Virus genome (UHGV): UHGV-0351092
DNA: 10,040 nucleotides
From: a virus
Reading direction: 5' to 3' (one strand)
The notes under the pieces were generated by a model that was not told the origin of the DNA, ran no database searches, and saw only the letters and a program-made list of their open reading frames with translations. The position numbers were made by a program, and so were the translations under genes. Positions 5,670 through 10,040 of the stretch are shown piece by piece. Numbering within the stretch: the stretch's first letter is position 1; the number at the start of each line of letters is the position of its first letter.

Positions 5670-7080
5670 ACAGTGGGCGCACATCATCACCGTCAATAGC
5701 GATTACGCCGTCACCTTCCAGCTTGTACAGCCAGCGCCGGAAGTTTTTCATCTCATACCCCAGCTTTTTCATGTCATCGCGCAACAACGGAATAGTGCAT
5801 TTATCTCCGCGTTGCGTGCGTGAACGGATACAGCCCCATAGTGCGGCGTGATTCTCCGTCTTGTTCCCGGCTTCCTCGATGCGATCCAGTTCAACTGGCG
5901 GACGGGGCTTATCCTCCAGCACCAACGACGTGATTAACTCCCCGCCTTCATCCTTGAAAAGCTCAACCTCGCGCAAATCGCAAGCCATTTCTTTCAATTC
6001 CTCCGCATCCTTCATCTTGGTACATGCGATAACCAGGGCTTCACTGCCTGCACCTTCACGGCGTATCCGGTACTCTGCATCCAGTGCTGCACGAAACGCA
6101 CTGGAACCGCGCGCACCCTTTGTTTCGTCCTTGCCGGAATGGTGAATTACCAGCACTGTAGCGCCTGTACGCCGTTTCAGTTCGTCACATCCATGGACAA
6201 ATGCCCCCATATCCCGCGCATCATTTTCATCGCTGCCACCAAAGCAACGCGCCAGAGTATCCAGAATAATCATGCGTACAGGTTTACCCGTTTCCTGCTC
6301 AACCTGTCGGGCAGCAATAACCATTTCATCAACATCACTCGGTGCGGCCGGAAAAATTGGACGATTTACCAGGTACAGATTTTTCACCTGCTCACTGTTC
6401 ACCAGTTCCCATGCCTTGATACGACGAGGAACACCGATCCCGCCCTCACCAACGACATACATAACCGCACCATGTACAACCCGGCGACCTCCCCACGGGA
6501 TACCGGTAGCAACATGACATGCCCACGAACACGCAAGGAACGACTTATAAGAACCGCTCGCACCGTATGTGCTACATAGCGAATTAGCCGGAATCACGCC
6601 CTTAACTACATAGCTAAGCTGTGAATCATATCCTTCCGATCCAATGCTCATTGGTAGTGTGGTTTTTCGCTGGCTGTATTGCTCGTCAGTAAGCATTTCT
6701 TCGTGCTCTGCCTGTTCGCGGATTCGTTGCAGGTAATCGCGCCAGTTCTCCGGCTCCCGGTCGGTGATGCCTTTGTATAATTTCGCCTCCTGTACGCCAG
6801 CCAGCGCCAGTTTTTCAGCGATAGCATTGATCTGGATTGGTTCGATCTCCCCCGCGAGATAGACACGCGCAAAGCGGCGTTCATCGTCGACAATGCGGAT
6901 ATTCACCAGGTCTGCCAGTTGCTTTGGCCCCAGGTAAACAGGTGGTACGTTATCGCCGTGTTTTCGTCCTTCGCTTTCAATCCAGTGTTGAGCATGGGAG
7001 TAAGCGTCCGTCCCGGCAAAAATGATTACCTCGGTGAATTTATCCTTCGGCTGATATTTTAAATTCGGTGCGTTTTTCAC
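5668..7080 (-). CDS. replication protein: RepA/DnaB-like (RecA-fold, AAA_25-type) helicase with an N-terminal domain of unknown function
   Basis: ORF-track 470 aa. GTG start at 7080-7078 preceded by GGGAGGT with a 5-nt spacer. P-loop-like YGASGSYKSF, Walker B-like RMIILDTL, and VLVIHHSGKD typical of RepA-type helicases. Start overlaps the upstream stop as GTGA; iterons lie immediately downstream. Confidence 0.8.
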   Translation of the reverse strand: MKNAPNLKYQPKDKFTEVIIFAGTDAYSHAQHWIESEGRKHGDNVPPVYLGPKQLADLVNIRIVDDERRFARVYLAGEIEPIQINAIAEKLALAGVQEAKLYKGITDREPENWRDYLQRIREQAEHEEMLTDEQYSQRKTTLPMSIGSEGYDSQLSYVVKGVIPANSLCSTYGASGSYKSFLACSWACHVATGIPWGGRRVVHGAVMYVVGEGGIGVPRRIKAWELVNSEQVKNLYLVNRPIFPAAPSDVDEMVIAARQVEQETGKPVRMIILDTLARCFGGSDENDARDMGAFVHGCDELKRRTGATVLVIHHSGKDETKGARGSSAFRAALDAEYRIRREGAGSEALVIACTKMKDAEELKEMACDLREVELFKDEGGELITSLVLEDKPRPPVELDRIEEAGNKTENHAALWGCIRSRTQRGDKCTIPLLRDDMKKLGYEMKNFRRWLYKLEGDGVIAIDGDDVRPL

Positions 7081-7367
7081 TTCTTACCTCCCGCAACCAA
7101 CATTGCCCGGATTTTTTTAATATTCGTGGCTGCACGTCTTGCCACTGCCTGTTGTTTGTTTTCAACCAGAATAAAATCACGCTCAAACTGACGGCGCGGC
7201 ATTACGCAGTCATATTCGTAAGCCTCACGGCGGTAGGTGATATTGCCTGGCGTAACGTGACGAATAACCACTCGTCCCCCACGTCTGGTGTCGCGGTAAA
7301 TATCGCCGTGTCTGATTTCAGGCCGAGCGGGGCCGCTGGCAGTAAAGCCAGAATTTTTCTTTTTCAT
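7077..7367 (-). CDS. small basic hypothetical protein (96 aa)
   Basis: ORF track; ATG at 7367 preceded by AGGAAA; stop overlaps the helicase GTG start (GTGA). Lys/Arg-rich termini. No family recognised. Confidence 0.6.
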   Translation of the reverse strand: MKKKNSGFTASGPARPEIRHGDIYRDTRRGGRVVIRHVTPGNITYRREAYEYDCVMPRRQFERDFILVENKQQAVARRAATNIKKIRAMLVAGGKK

Positions 7368-7371
7368 GGTT

Positions 7372-7572
7372 TTATTTTCCTGTCAGCAGTTCCGATTTTA
7401 TTTCCGCACGAATACAAAGTTCAGAAAAAAATTCAGGAGAACCAACAATCTCATTACTTTTCAGTCGGCATTGTGATTTCACTTTCCCTTTATCCAGGTA
7501 AACCAGTACGCGTCCGGTGAAATCATCTGGCACACTCAGGGTAATTGTCATTGTTGCTTGCTGATTATCCAT
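7372..7572 (-). CDS. small hypothetical protein (66 aa) carrying one copy of a ~37-aa FTG...G.V.S..R module
   Basis: ORF track; ATG at 7572 preceded by GGGGGTGA; 8-nt overlap with the upstream gene (ATGGATAA). Shares the motif DDFTGRVLVYLDKGKVKSQCRL...GSPEFFSEL with both halves of the adjacent 121-aa protein. Confidence 0.6.
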   Translation of the reverse strand: MDNQQATMTITLSVPDDFTGRVLVYLDKGKVKSQCRLKSNEIVGSPEFFSELCIRAEIKSELLTGK

Positions 7573-7930
7573 GATTCACCCCCTGAATAACCTGATAACC
7601 GCAACTGGTCAGCAATTCGATAAATTCCGGCAGTGTTCCGAAACAGCAATTATCACGCATACGTTCGCGGGATACCTCAACGCCGTTTTCGTAGTGACTC
7701 ACCATGCGTCCGGTAAAATGCAGATCATCATCGTGATGGCACGTTGACGGCTTAATCAGTCGCGCACGTTCTGCCAGCTCCAGCAATGCTTCAACACTTC
7801 CGGCAATTGCACCATCCGGCAGGCGATAATTACTTACCACGCGTCCATTCTCCACATTGACCAGTAGCTGCCCGGTAAATTTCTCATCAAACTGAATGCT
7901 GTTAAGGTCAGAAATTGACAGGTTATGCAT
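7565..7930 (-). CDS. hypothetical protein (121 aa) built from two tandem copies of the same ~37-aa module
   Basis: ORF track; ATG at 7930 preceded by AGGAGGTG with a 5-nt spacer; 8-nt overlap with the upstream gene (ATGCATAA). Internal repeats EKFTGQLLVNVENGRVVSNYRL...GSVEALLEL and LHFTGRMVSHYENGVEVSRERM...GTLPEFIEL. Confidence 0.65.
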   Translation of the reverse strand: MHNLSISDLNSIQFDEKFTGQLLVNVENGRVVSNYRLPDGAIAGSVEALLELAERARLIKPSTCHHDDDLHFTGRMVSHYENGVEVSRERMRDNCCFGTLPEFIELLTSCGYQVIQGVNHG

Positions 7931-8288
7931 GGTGCACCTCCTGGCGAATACGGGCGGCGAATACCATCACGCAGCCATCAGGAGATTGCTGGCGTGCTTC
8001 CTGTTCGCTGGTGGCCTCGATGTGAATCACGCGCGGTTGTGCCGTACTCAGGGCGATAAAACGCCAGATAAAATTGTTTTCGCATTTCTGAATAAACAGC
8101 GTGTTTTCTTCGCGCCCTTTCCATGTTGCCGAGATATAGCCCATGCCATTGAGCATCTCGCAGGCATCAACCAGCGTATCAGCGGCTACGTGTACAGTGT
8201 TTTTACCGTCAGCTATGCAATCACGGTGCACCGCCAGGAAGGTGTATATAAATTTAGGGTGAGTTTGGGTATGCTGTGTTCCAGCCAT
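7923..8288 (-). CDS. hypothetical protein (121 aa); first gene of the minus-strand operon downstream of the divergent control region
   Basis: ATG at 8288-8286 preceded by GAGGT with a 7-nt spacer. Translation MAGTQHTQTHPKFIYTFLAVHRDCIADGKNTVHVAADTLVDACEMLNGMGYISATWKGREENTLFIQ... Corresponds to the C-terminal 121 aa of the 501-aa ORF-track entry, whose upstream part is antisense to the plus-strand RHH gene. No family recognised. Confidence 0.6.
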   Translation of the reverse strand: MAGTQHTQTHPKFIYTFLAVHRDCIADGKNTVHVAADTLVDACEMLNGMGYISATWKGREENTLFIQKCENNFIWRFIALSTAQPRVIHIEATSEQEARQQSPDGCVMVFAARIRQEVHHA

Positions 8289-8487
8289 AATCGTTACCTC
8301 ATTTAACGGTTTGGTTAGAAGCCCCGTTACTGCTCCAACAGTGCGGGGCTTCGTCGTTTCAATTGCTGAATTGCATGTATCAGCCCTTGTGGTATTCAGA
8401 TTACATTTTGGTGAATACCATTTCAAGTCTTTTTTGGTATTCACTTTTGTATTACACTGCATCCCGTTATTAATCGGAGGTGCAAAC
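8289..8487. promoter_or_regulatory. divergent control region with operator-like inverted repeats and a GC-rich stem-loop
   Basis: TGGTATTCA (8390-8398) and its exact reverse complement TGAATACCA (8412-8420) are separated by 13 bp; a third TGGTATTCA lies at 8436-8444. Stem-loop GAAGCCCCG (8318-8326) / CGGGGCTTC (8344-8352). Sits between the minus gene start at 8288 and the plus gene start at 8488. Promoter hexamers could not be placed reliably by eye. Confidence 0.5.
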
Positions 8488-8793
8488 ATGTCCACGAGTT
8501 CTGTTAACAATAAGTCACAGCAACTGAATGCCAGATTTCCACATGAAGTAGTGAGTGGCATTGAGGCATCCCTACAGCCAGGGGAAACTAAAGCGAATTT
8601 TATAGTTACGGCTGTACGCGGTGAGATCGCCCGCCGCCAGGCAGAAGGAAGCGGAGAAAATCCCCTGGTTTCTTCGCTCGATGCGCTGGCGCAGGTGGAA
8701 AAAATCGGAGTCAAAGCTGCCGAGGAGATCGGGCAGCTCGTCACCGTCGCACGTGAAGAACTCCAGCGCCGCAAGGCCAAAGAATCAGAATAA
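8488..8793 (+). CDS. Arc/Mnt-like ribbon-helix-helix DNA-binding protein (putative repressor), 101 aa
   Basis: ATG at 8488 preceded by GGAGGT (8476-8481) with a 6-nt spacer; TAATAA double stop at 8791-8796. N-terminus KSQQLNARFPHEVVSGIEASLQPGETKANFIVTAVRGEIARRQ aligns with the P22 Arc pattern (QFNLRWPREV...GRSVNSEIYQRV, recalled from memory). The ORF-track 8311..8793 entry is an in-frame upstream extension with no SD. Confidence 0.7.
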   Translation: MSTSSVNNKSQQLNARFPHEVVSGIEASLQPGETKANFIVTAVRGEIARRQAEGSGENPLVSSLDALAQVEKIGVKAAEEIGQLVTVAREELQRRKAKESE

Positions 8794-8850
8794 TAACTAT
8801 CATCGCCGTGGTGTGAGGAACTCCGGCGCATTGCTTTACAGGTACACAGA

Positions 8851-9030
8851 ATGACCAACAAAGAATCAACCAAAACACCATCACCAACTCGTAAGAGACG
8901 ACGCAAAAATATAGCGCATGAACATGAATCAGAAAGATTCGCACCTTGTTCGTTTGCTCTTGAGAAATTCCTTAAAGAGCACAGGAAAAAGCTCTCGTTG
9001 CAAACCTTGGAACGAACCAAATCTGACTGA
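8851..9030 (+). CDS. possible small basic protein (59 aa), weakly supported
   Basis: ATG at 8851 with only a weak AGGT 4 nt upstream; translation MTNKESTKTPSPTRKRRRKNIAHEHESERFAPCSFALEKFLKEHRKKLSLQTLERTKSD; TGA at 9028-9030. Below the ORF-track cutoff. Confidence 0.3.
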   Translation: MTNKESTKTPSPTRKRRRKNIAHEHESERFAPCSFALEKFLKEHRKKLSLQTLERTKSD

Positions 9031-9033
9031 TCA

Positions 9034-9428
9034 CATTGCCCACCAGCCGCAAATGTGGCATTGTTGGTGATGCGTTCAAGTATGTAGCTTTTCCACTGGC
9101 GGCTCTCTACGGTCGCCTTTGTTTTATCCAGAACGAAATCAGACATCAGATTGATCAGCACCTGGCGACCTGACAAAATCGCATCAGTCGCGCCACCAGC
9201 AAAATTTTTTGCTTTCCGGACGGCGTGACCAACGGCATTTTGCAGCAAAATATTCTGCATTTCTGGCGTGCTGTAGTAACGGTGATCAGCGCCTTCACTC
9301 TGTGCGACCACAACGCTATAATCTGCCTCGTAGACAGTAAGCAATATGGCGCAGTAGGCTATTCGTTCACAAAGGCGCTCCGGCAACGGGGCGCTTTCTC
9401 TTTTTGTAACGGTCAGAGCGTTACACAT
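9034..9428 (-). CDS. candidate gene with a strong start but no in-frame stop (3' boundary approximate); possibly frameshifted or disrupted
   Basis: ATG at 9428-9426 preceded by GGAGGA with an 8-nt spacer; overlaps the antirepressor stop as ATGTGTAA. First ~130 aa look protein-like (...AKNFAGGATDAILSGRQVLINLMSDFVLDKTKATVESRQWKSYILERITNNATFAAGG). Beyond ~9040 the frame stays open to 7923 with Ser/Cys/Arg-rich antisense-type composition. A TGA exists at 9031-9033 but in another frame. Confidence 0.3.
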
Positions 9429-10040
9429 GGCTGTTTTCCTCCATGCGACGGGCTAACCAACGCTGCGAAAGACGAATTAATTCAGCCTTCCGCTGGTGGT
9501 AGTCCTGGCCTAACTCAATCAGCGTGATATTGCTCTGCTCAAGGTAAGAAAGGTGCTCAAGCTGCAACGTGCTCATGTGGTCGCGTGGTTCGCCTGTAAT
9601 GCCGTTCGCCAGTGCCCACTGTTTTGCAGTCATGCCACCCAGCACGATACGCGCCAGCATGTTCGCTTCCGTGGTGTAGTGGTGCTGGAGTGTGTTTTTA
9701 CCCAGTTCAGCCCGGTACGCCTCCAGCGCGGCACACATTGGCTTAAAGTAGCTGGCAACTGTGATACGGGCTTTCAGTTCCCGGCGTAACGCTGCGGAAC
9801 GAACAGGCGCAACCTTGTGTAGCTCCTCCTCGCATTTGATAAAGTACTGGCGAACGGCGCGGCCCTGTTCGGTACGTTCGACCATCGCCAGTTCTTTCGC
9901 CATGTTCACTGTGATGATGTACTCAAGAGCGGTTTGCTGGCGAGATTTTGCGCTCACCGGATCGGGTCGGCTCAAATATTCAACAACCTCATAATCCACG
10001 CCTTCCGTGAACCCGTATTCTTCAATGCGCCCCTTGATCC
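9421..10040 (-). CDS. phage antirepressor-like protein (AntA-type domain), N-terminus beyond the window
   Basis: Frame is open from the window end (10040) to TAA at 9421-9423; the ORF-track start at 9999 is an internal GTG. Segment EGVDYEVVEYLSRPDPVSAKSRQQTALEYIITVNMAKELAMVERTEQGRAVRQYFIKCEEEL matches the AntA-type signature MAKELAMV.R...GR..R.YFI..E. Confidence 0.7.
   Translation of the reverse strand, partial: IKGRIEEYGFTEGVDYEVVEYLSRPDPVSAKSRQQTALEYIITVNMAKELAMVERTEQGRAVRQYFIKCEEELHKVAPVRSAALRRELKARITVASYFKPMCAALEAYRAELGKNTLQHHYTTEANMLARIVLGGMTAKQWALANGITGEPRDHMSTLQLEHLSYLEQSNITLIELGQDYHQRKAELIRLSQRWLARRMEENSHV

Follow-up and report, generated by a model that had tools for sequence, protein, structure and literature searches.

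A candidate ribbon-helix-helix repressor and its putative operators at the replication operon of a probable Gram-negative phage-inducible chromosomal island

Introduction

The immI region of phage P22 carries two repressors of the ribbon-helix-helix (RHH) type, Arc and Mnt, and the divergent promoters Pant and Pmnt. Antisense RNA systems are known from F-like plasmids (FinP/traJ/FinO) and from phage P1 (c4-icd-ant), and the Stl proteins of the Staphylococcus aureus pathogenicity islands (SaPIs) are of the helix-turn-helix (HTH) type. Repression by Stl proteins is relieved by the formation of a complex with a helper-phage protein (PMC6092414). In EcCICFT073, the prototype of the Gram-negative phage-inducible chromosomal islands (PICIs), AlpA is required as an activator and suffices if overexpressed (PMC6092414); the paper that defined the Gram-negative PICIs states that these "are transcribed unidirectionally" and describes no clear repressor. 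Here we analyse positions 8289-8487 of UHGV virus genome UHGV-0351092, a stretch of 10,040 nucleotides (the window) that corresponds to an Escherichia coli chromosomal island. An initial annotation had seen in this region a repressor gene of the RHH type that faces an early operon across its operators, a reading that was right in kind, although neither its three half-sites nor its minus-strand leader stem was upheld. On balance, the evidence presented below favours the view that this stretch serves as the regulatory switch of a phage satellite of the Gram-negative PICI type, with a YlcI-like RHH protein as its repressor.

Results

Four operator-like sites between two divergent genes

The region is exactly the gap between the start of a minus-strand gene (8288) and a 101-aa open reading frame (ORF) on the plus strand (8488-8793), which does face a minus-strand operon as had been annotated. 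It contains three exact copies of TGGTATTCA, at 8390-8398 (plus strand), 8412-8420 (minus strand) and 8435-8443 (plus strand). The first two make up the exact inverted repeat with a 13-bp spacer noted at the outset, and the second and third make up another, divergent one with 10-nt arms and a 14-bp spacer. The third copy begins 14 bp past the end of the second and 36 bp past the end of the first (the '38 bp downstream' given previously was a miscount), and the start-to-start distances are 22 and 23 bp. No further exact copy was found in the window, nor in the 25-kb locus of a near-identical island. When the 199-bp region was dinucleotide-shuffled, 106 of 20,000 shuffles contained some 9-mer at least three times, a figure inflated by T-runs, and it is for this reason that the comparison among loci is the decisive test.

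Related loci were drawn from a one-genome-per-species collection, from assemblies encoding chosen homologues and from complete E. coli genomes. When 23 of them were anchored without gaps on the ATG of the 101-aa ORF, which we call ylcI after its family, repeated elements fell at -98, -76, -53 and -31 in nearly every locus. In the window the first three of these are occupied by exact sites and the fourth by a degenerate one, at a position where its relatives carry a strong site directly after the ylcI -10 hexamer:

O1, 8389-8399, GTGGTATTCAG: exact core 8390-8398; abuts the -10 and covers the predicted leftward start point
O2, 8411-8421, GTGAATACCAT, inverted: exact core 8412-8420; within the -35/-10 spacer of the predicted leftward promoter
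O3, 8434-8444, TTGGTATTCAC: exact core 8435-8443
O4, 8458-8466, TGCATCCCG: degenerate, 6/9 to TGAATACCA; placed by sequence and by the anchored alignment

Within the window's class the three GGTATTCA cores are invariant and their flanks vary. The sites alternate in orientation in most classes; in others, two direct sites are followed by two inverted ones. The general unit is an 11-mer of the GTG-N5-CAC type (examples are GTGGTATTCAC, GTGTGTTTCAC, GTGTGGCCCAC and GTGCGGTTCAC), which suggests a whole dimer site rather than a half-site, so that each 11-bp unit probably takes one dimer. Instead of the three half-sites first described, there are four positions, about two helical turns apart, each an 11-bp unit.

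Site sequence follows the N-terminal segment of the YlcI-like protein

The positions of the sites recur across the 23 loci while their sequences differ, and sites were found in Escherichia, Yersinia, Klebsiella, Enterobacter, Xenorhabdus, Photorhabdus, Pantoea and other genera (20+ loci). The central bases vary by class and track residues 11-17 of the YlcI-like protein, as follows:

Residues QQ[LI][NG]AR[FV]: site core (G/C)(T/G)ATTCAC
Residues [KR]QISIRI: site core TGTGATTCA (L032-type)
Residues QLTTVRV: site core GTGTGTTTCA
Residues QSLTARI: site core GTGTAAG
Residues QIKNVRV: site core GTGTGCAT
Residues QALKARV: site core GTGTGGCCCAC

Setting the top 7-mer of each locus against all loci produced a block-diagonal matrix, in which cores were common only to loci with identical residues 11-17. 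The blocks cross genera, uniting E. coli with Yersinia, E. coli with Xenorhabdus and Photorhabdus, and E. coli with Klebsiella. Two pairs of islands show how narrowly the correspondence is confined. The island of strain 2017C-4173W12 (L033), which has the same att site as EcCICFT073 and encodes a full 101-aa YlcI of the window's specificity class, has int, AlpA, a small ORF (orf59) and Icd in common with EcCICFT073, and the two differ in their YlcI N-domains and operators. Likewise, the window locus and L032 have Icd and YlcI residues 45-101 in common and differ in N-domain and operators. The repeats are therefore likely to be operators of the YlcI-like protein, their sequence covarying with its N-terminal segment only.

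These pairs also bear on the idea that another factor (AlpA, the Icd-like protein, orf59, or a host or helper-phage protein) binds the repeats and that the YlcI-like protein does something else. AlpA is a DNA-binding activator of island genes, and the C-terminus of the Icd-like protein matches families labelled 'transcriptional repressor' (phrog_6196 and phrog_1743). We nevertheless consider another binder very improbable, as the operators differ among islands that are identical in AlpA, Icd and orf59, the same operators recur in islands whose Icd N-termini differ, and only the YlcI N-domain tracks the site sequence.

The sites overlap a predicted promoter of the replication operon

The operon to the left of the sites and its predicted promoter comprise the following features:

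8398-8426, minus strand: predicted leftward sigma-70 promoter; -35 TTGAAA (8426-8421), 17-bp spacer, -10 TAATCT (8403-8398), start near 8391
7923-8288, minus strand: Icd-like gene, 121 aa, first gene of the leftward operon; named "host cell division inhibitor Icd-like" by NCBIfam
7565-7930, 7372-7572, 7077-7367 (DUF4222) and 5668-7080 (RepA-type helicase), minus strand: rest of the leftward operon, translationally chained to the Icd-like gene

In a position-weight scan, the best minus-strand sigma-70 match was at the identical position in 23 of 23 loci. The 5' end of the -35 lies at -62 and the 3' end of the -10 mostly at -90 (-91 to -94 in six loci), and the spacer is usually 17 bp. O2 fills this spacer next to the -35 and O1 spans the last base of the -10 through the expected start near 8391, an overlap of O1 and O2 with the replication-operon promoter that is found in every locus. 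A protein bound at these two sites would thus be expected to occlude RNA polymerase. To our knowledge, binding at spacer or start-point positions is repressive in essentially all known cases.

On the ylcI side, a TATAAT or TATACT hexamer ends at -31 in most relatives, immediately ahead of O4, and is paired with a weak -35 that overlaps O3, an arrangement that fits autoregulation. TATTAC (8450-8455) was considered as the ylcI -10 of the window and was ruled out, as a close relative has TGTTAC.

Downstream of the promoter, each gene of the leftward operon overlaps or abuts the next. The PHROGs label of the two families matched by the Icd-like C-terminus conflicts with that of NCBI, which is cell-division inhibitor.

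The YlcI-like protein has a predicted RHH domain and a conserved C-terminal helix

The gene that would encode the repressor has the following organisation:

8488-8793, plus strand: ylcI-like gene, 101 aa; N-terminal RHH domain at about residues 9-54, specificity segment at residues 11-17 (QQLNARF), conserved long C-terminal helix at residues 59-100

Residues 9-50 of the protein match YlcI_YnfO_N (NCBIfam NF041551), a 42-residue N-terminal domain, at 60.3 bits against a cutoff of 30, and the NCBI annotation pipeline (PGAP) names its homologues YlcI/YnfO likewise; Pfam gave no match to the 101-aa protein at 0.01. An exhaustive HMMER search yielded only 79 clusters at 50% identity, many of them consisting of 52-66-aa proteins with the N-domain only. 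The family pattern, KSQ-xxxx-R-x-P-H-E-[VI]-xxx-[MI]-E-xx-K-xx-G-E-[ST]-x-A-x-F-I-V-x-A-xxx-E-I-x-R-R, in which R16 is invariant, reads in structural terms as a strand followed by two helices that are joined by a G-x-S/T turn. The G-x-S/T/N turn between helices and the alternating polar strand residues that characterise the RHH superfamily (MetJ/Arc) are both present. In agreement with this, the monomer model of the N-domain (predicted local distance difference test score of 89.8) consists of an extended strand and two helices and resembles solved RHH domains, the names given being SvtR, ORF56, NikR, MazE9, TacA1, CopG-family proteins and PutA. The weak Pfam matches of family members also cluster on families with RHH- or CopG-type names (CB_ParB_C, RHH_1, TacA1, HicB_lk and PSK_trans_fac).

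These observations support an RHH fold of the N-domain. The closer kinship with Arc and Mnt that had been suggested for the gene is a different matter: hhalign places NARFPHEV in register with NLRWPREV of Arc (whose sequence was verified against the PDB), and the G-x-S turn likewise, but its matches to Arc, Mnt and CopG are weak, and the data thus support an RHH protein but not a member of the Arc family, given an hhalign probability of only 8-38% and the absence of any match to the Arc family PF03869 among the 74 family members scanned.

In an alignment of 23 homologues, residues 2-35, and above all 11-17, are variable and the C-terminal half is highly conserved. Its conservation, which greatly exceeds that of the DNA-binding domain, hints at a partner that is conserved as well. 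Residues 59-100 form a single long, confident helix in the AlphaFold model. An alternative to the one-helix model comes from a profile search of PDB sequences, whose sole result was that the C-terminal half (8647-8790, residues 54-101) weakly resembles the Hef and XPF nucleases in a helix-hairpin-helix-like match (LDALAQVEKIGVKAAEEI, E 0.0056). The YlcI of EcCICFT073 itself (L021 8474-8653; NC_004431 1380473-1380652) has 59 aa only, its C-terminal helical domain having apparently been lost in-frame, with EIKRRQ joined to RRKAKEQE. In the DLP12 prophage of E. coli K-12 (L034 4752-5335), the namesake of the family, the 64-aa ylcI, faces away from nohD, the gene for the small subunit of terminase, with cos between the two, and a search upstream of this ylcI for GTG-N5/N6-CAC motifs found none. 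The operator architecture therefore appears specific to the satellite clade, phage members of the family having a different context.

The surrounding island is organised like a Gram-negative PICI

Over the 1.2 kb queried (7900-9100), the window is 99.9% identical to an element of E. coli ETEC4077. This near-identical island is about 12 kb long, lies beside tRNA-Pro and has the gene order int, HTH/AlpA-type gene, ylcI (on the opposite strand), Icd-like, hypothetical, DUF4222, RepA helicase, ProQ/FinO, PerC, NUDIX, DUF2213 and others. Strain 2014C-3075 carries the island too. Of 5426 complete E. coli genomes, 1486 contain DNA related to 7900-9100, and 57 of them have the operator allele of the window; a search of a phage collection found no related phage. 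Gram-negative PICIs are defined by int, an alpA-type regulator, a pri/rep module, a size of about 12-15 kb, an att site of their own and the lack of a phage structural/lysis set (Fillol-Salom 2018). In EcCICFT073 the module runs int, alpA, a 57-aa ORF, an opposite-strand YlcI/YnfO gene and Icd-like, and continues to DUF4222, primase, SSB, PerC and capsid genes, an order common to this island and every island that we fetched. With its RepA-type helicase, DUF4222, Icd-like, PerC and ProQ genes, the window agrees with the Gram-negative PICIs in gene content and organisation; int and the HTH/AlpA-type gene are seen in the ETEC4077 island, the window stopping short of int.

A model of repression and the weight of its alternatives

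Taken together, these results make it probable, as far as sequence comparison can tell, that a YlcI/YnfO-family RHH protein binds O1-O4, represses the replication operon and regulates its own synthesis. In this model, dimers of the YlcI-like protein would bind the four 11-bp GTG-N5-CAC-like operators, which would lie on one face of the helix owing to their 22-23-bp spacing, and would probably be linked for cooperative binding by the conserved C-terminal helix. Protein at O2, in the spacer, and at O1, from the edge of the -10 through the start, would block RNA polymerase and keep the Icd-like/DUF4222/RepA-helicase operon silent, and O3 and O4, which flank the ylcI promoter region, would provide for autoregulation. 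We infer binding from the covariation of site and protein and the sign of regulation from where the sites lie relative to the promoter, and cooperativity and the role in induction are likewise what we infer here. The hairpin described below, the operators and the N-domain would together form an exchangeable specificity cassette, comparable to an immunity region.

It is also conceivable that the YlcI-like protein is a local autoregulator only, such as an RHH protein that acts like an antitoxin towards a small toxin (orf59 or the Icd-like protein), with sites that serve autoregulation and addiction and have no part in controlling the satellite's life cycle. The RHH antitoxins HicB, TacA, MazE9 and ParD do occur among the structural and weak Pfam matches, a small conserved ORF follows ylcI, Icd-like proteins are annotated as division inhibitors, and the known trigger of these islands is AlpA, not derepression. 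This small ORF has the following position:

8851-9030, plus strand: orf59, a small basic protein, co-oriented with ylcI; phrog_21027

It is kept in EcCICFT073 and other islands, is missing from many related loci and shows no covariation with the operators. Domain and family searches gave no match of orf59 to any toxin family, many loci that lack it keep all four sites, and two of the four sites overlap the replication-operon promoter in every locus, all of which makes an antitoxin-like role quite unlikely.

Several observations weigh against repression by the YlcI-like protein itself. A consensus promoter and terminator scan of 8200-8900 called neither the leftward promoter nor the hairpin described below, and the window allele has no convincing ylcI promoter. 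No Pfam RHH model reaches threshold, and the hhalign match to the Arc-family alignment is weak (E 3e-4 to 5e-3) and covers the strand and helix A only. The literature search returned no functional study of YlcI/YnfO, of PICIs with RHH proteins or antisense RNA or of FinO with PICIs, and no binding or expression data for any member of the family; a 2026 survey lists YlcI/YnfO only as "prophage-associated protein" (PMC13612085). Operators and N-domain lie less than 100 bp apart and are co-inherited, so that their covariation could in part reflect linkage. Linkage does contribute to the pattern; however, all four sites change in concert in each class, which points to a trans-acting reader with altered specificity and argues against pure linkage. 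Lastly, EcCICFT073 is induced by overexpressed AlpA alone (PMC6092414), and since its YlcI is the 59-aa deletion form, a strict master-repressor role in induction, as the initial annotation expected, is doubtful.

Two hairpins and a possible antisense RNA over the icd start

From the start of the icd-like gene towards the operators lie two hairpins, preceded on the plus strand by a hexamer that resembles a -10:

8270-8275, plus strand: -10-like hexamer TATGCT for the proposed antisense RNA; position conserved in 21 of 21 loci
8283-8316, plus strand: SL1; loop CCUCAUU complementary to the icd-like Shine-Dalgarno (SD) sequence; the stem covers the complement of the icd start codon
8318-8352, plus strand: SL2; GC stem and inner ACTG/CAGT stem, 13 consensus pairs, 7 of them with compensatory changes; short T-tract at 8357-8359

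The 9-bp GC stem of SL2 (8318-8326/8344-8352) is exactly as initially annotated; it had been assigned to the leader of the early operon, and it now appears to belong to a pair of hairpins under selection on the opposite, plus strand, antisense to that leader. Across 18 distinct sequences, 96.5% of SL2 cells pair and compensatory changes affect 7/13 pairs, values that none of 500 shuffles reached, and slid controls fall to 38-51% paired. In the plus-strand reading, G·U accounts for 54 cells of the paired columns and A·C for a single one. The plus strand is also the more stable one in 21 of 21 loci (mean of -35.4 vs -22.8 kcal/mol), and for the window's 81-nt plus-strand RNA the folding energy is -35 kcal/mol (z -6.7). 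The -10-like hexamer ends 34 ± 2 nt upstream of SL2 in all 21 loci; its T1, A2 and T6 are always present, it reads TGnTATGAT in one subgroup, and its position is held although the overlapping icd codons encode different residues. On the basis of this plus-strand-specific variation and stability and of the conserved hexamer upstream, we propose, with less confidence than for the operators, a further layer of control in the form of a cis-antisense RNA of about 80 nt (~8282-8362), whose two hairpins would lie over the translation-initiation region of icd and its ribosome-binding site.

The hairpins might instead act on the minus-strand mRNA, as a 5' leader that stabilises the early transcript or sequesters the icd ribosome-binding site, with no antisense RNA involved. 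For 8289-8391, the minus strand too gives a better fold than shuffled sequences do (z -4.9), and the 5-bp core of SL1 loops out the SD on the mRNA too. As an intrinsic terminator, SL2 has a strong, covarying stem, but its T-run (TTT, up to 5 T in relatives) does not start until 4-5 nt past the stem, an atypical arrangement, and the terminator scan made no call here. Rfam gave no match on the plus strand of 8280-8362 with E up to 1, the C4 RNA model (RF01695) included; the minus strand gave only a chance-level match to RsaJ, and a scan of the whole window at the same limit returned nothing relevant. Against a role in the mRNA stand the greater stability of the plus strand in every locus and the excess of G·U over A·C cells: most of the variation would break minus-strand pairs, and several pairs covary via G·U intermediates. 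The fixed plus-strand distance of the hexamer, irrespective of the amino acids encoded, points the same way. A leader function alone therefore seems to us possible and rather doubtful. Part of the strand asymmetry could nonetheless come from selection for an unstructured mRNA leader, and the plus-strand RNA could be the 5' part of the ylcI transcript in alleles without a proximal promoter.

A stop-free frame runs through the switch into icd

The region is more than plain intergenic DNA: one minus-strand frame is open throughout it, from the alpA/antA side into icd:

7923-9449, minus strand: stop-free frame of 1527 nt; ATG at 9428, GGAGG 9 nt upstream, overlapping the antA stop

The resulting 501-aa ORF (9428-7923) crosses the switch region. 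The frame runs from the end of antA, antisense through orf59 and ylcI, across the operators and hairpins and in phase into icd. The same frame is open for 0.9-2.1 kb in 22 of 26 loci, from just past alpA/antA into icd, and neither of the other two minus frames stays open for more than 243 nt. Stop codons in 25 loci are distributed as follows:

Operator/hairpin region: 4 in this frame; 119 and 110 in the other minus frames; 45, 46 and 73 in the plus frames
Antisense to ylcI: 5 in this frame; 114 and 133 in the other minus frames

At least 16 of 21 loci have an in-frame ATG with an SD sequence close to where the frame opens at its 5' end. Translational coupling is suggested by L006 and L007, where the icd ATG marks the end of the frame; L003, L004 and L029 are exceptions to the stop-free frame. 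The frame also leads gene callers and PGAP, in some cases, to annotate Icd proteins as long or as 'N-terminally incomplete'. It is tempting to suggest that AlpA-activated transcription arriving from the right would have to be translated continuously in order to reach the replication operon, in keeping with the published "unidirectional" transcription. Such translated read-through, to which we attach less confidence than to repression, might let induction bypass or overrun the repressed promoter. The suggestion is a tentative one because of the three exceptional loci, the lack of rut-like bias described below and its basis in sequence.

The frame may simply be an accident of base composition or of the coding constraints on ylcI that is never translated. 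The predicted peptide is of low complexity where it is antisense to ylcI, has no Pfam or other family matches outside the Icd part and resembles antisense translation. Between the spacers of the window locus and L032 there are only 16 substitutions, at codon positions 4/8/4 and thus without codon periodicity or a sign of amino-acid constraint (4 synonymous and 12 non-synonymous), which are too few to judge purifying selection. No strong C>G bias of the kind expected for Rho rut sites was seen on the read-through RNA. An accident of this kind is nevertheless unlikely in view of the stop counts given above, of the phase of the frame with icd, or its end at the icd ATG, and of the ATG and SD that so many loci have near its 5' end.

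Other features of the window

One further gene was identified by domain search:

4660-5202: ProQ/FinO-family gene

Four non-coding stretches also drew our attention. An AT-rich intergenic stretch at 5258-5670, downstream of the RepA-type helicase gene, contains CCTCACTTTT at least nine times, with copies in each orientation, as well as a palindrome of 40 bp that is nearly perfect (5574-5613), and is probably the replication origin of the island with its iterons. At 1849-2106, downstream of a 175-aa HTH-like gene (2113-2640, minus strand), at least six copies of GGTTGACACTTT occur in both orientations inside larger 47-nt repeats, which could be a packaging site or a further operator array. Just past orf59, at 9039-9075, the motif TGCCCACCAGCCGCAAATGTGGCATTGTTGGTGAT includes a CCAC/GTGG inverted repeat and is conserved as DNA in many otherwise differing islands; it reads '..NNATFAAGGQ..' in the long minus frame, and could either terminate the ylcI-orf59 unit or be bound by a protein. 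Finally, two tandem GC-rich hairpins with U-tracts directly follow the PerC gene (4303-4372, minus strand), with a sub-threshold Rfam match to 'ncr1175'/Thr-leader, and probably form a double intrinsic terminator that ends the regulatory/replication operon.

Discussion

The mechanism that we propose is of a known kind; what is new is that Gram-negative PICIs have it as a module that is conserved and exchangeable and had gone unannotated, along with the two additional layers proposed above. The predicted regulator, a conserved RHH protein encoded on the opposite strand whose matched operators lie over the promoter of the replication operon, is also found in the prototype EcCICFT073. Gram-negative PICIs have been thought to have no repressor of such a kind, and the module, if it works as we propose, would supply the missing repressor arm of their switch. 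An exchangeable cassette would furthermore explain element-specific "immunity" classes, and would offer direct handles to engineer or block those satellites by which virulence and defence genes are spread. Both the stop-free frame and the RNA structure confined to one strand provide testable cases of coding and regulatory constraints that overlap.

A more elaborate switch of three layers can be imagined, in which the RHH cassette lies antisense inside a translated, AlpA-driven read-through frame and a FinP-like RNA blocks Icd translation during quiescence. The position of the ylcI cassette, antisense in the path of the read-through, would set up convergent transcription, which would silence ylcI and flip the switch irreversibly, and the stop-free frame would protect from Rho or help polymerase past the bound repressor. 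We put this combination forward only speculatively, since we believe it to be less probable than not by some distance.

Among described systems, P22 immI is one that the locus calls to mind. Both have small RHH repressors (predicted here), with operators that overlap back-to-back promoters and an antirepressor-type gene nearby (antA/Bro-N in the island). The strand motifs NLRWPREV of Arc and NFRMPMEV of Mnt have their counterpart in NARFPHEV, with Q, N and R at the alternating positions that contact bases in Arc, and the long C-terminal helix recalls the C-terminal helical oligomerisation domain of Mnt. The two also differ: the four sites lie two helical turns apart, whereas P22 has two adjacent half-sites; the operon controlled consists of the Icd-like and replication genes of a satellite; no significant sequence homology with the Arc family was found; and specificity segment and operators have been swapped together in many classes. 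In its place on the island map, a divergent regulator facing the excision/replication operon, the YlcI-like protein resembles the Stl/Rpr regulators of the SaPIs and, like them, would keep the island quiescent, but its predicted fold is RHH and the published activator is AlpA. Omega of pSM19035 and the AmrZ/CopG-type regulators differ in that the heptads of Omega are contiguous, in contrast to the 11-bp units spaced 22-23 bp apart and the additional long C-terminal helix seen here. As for the proposed RNA, its two hairpins, its position antisense to the ribosome-binding site of the first gene and the anti-SD sequence in its loop are reminiscent of FinP, and the island encodes a ProQ/FinO-family protein, although many hairpin-bearing islands lack one. 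It would share an Icd-like target with the C4 RNA of P1; C4, however, is co-directional and processed, whereas the RNA of the island, predicted from sequence alone and unmatched in Rfam, would act as a cis-antisense RNA.

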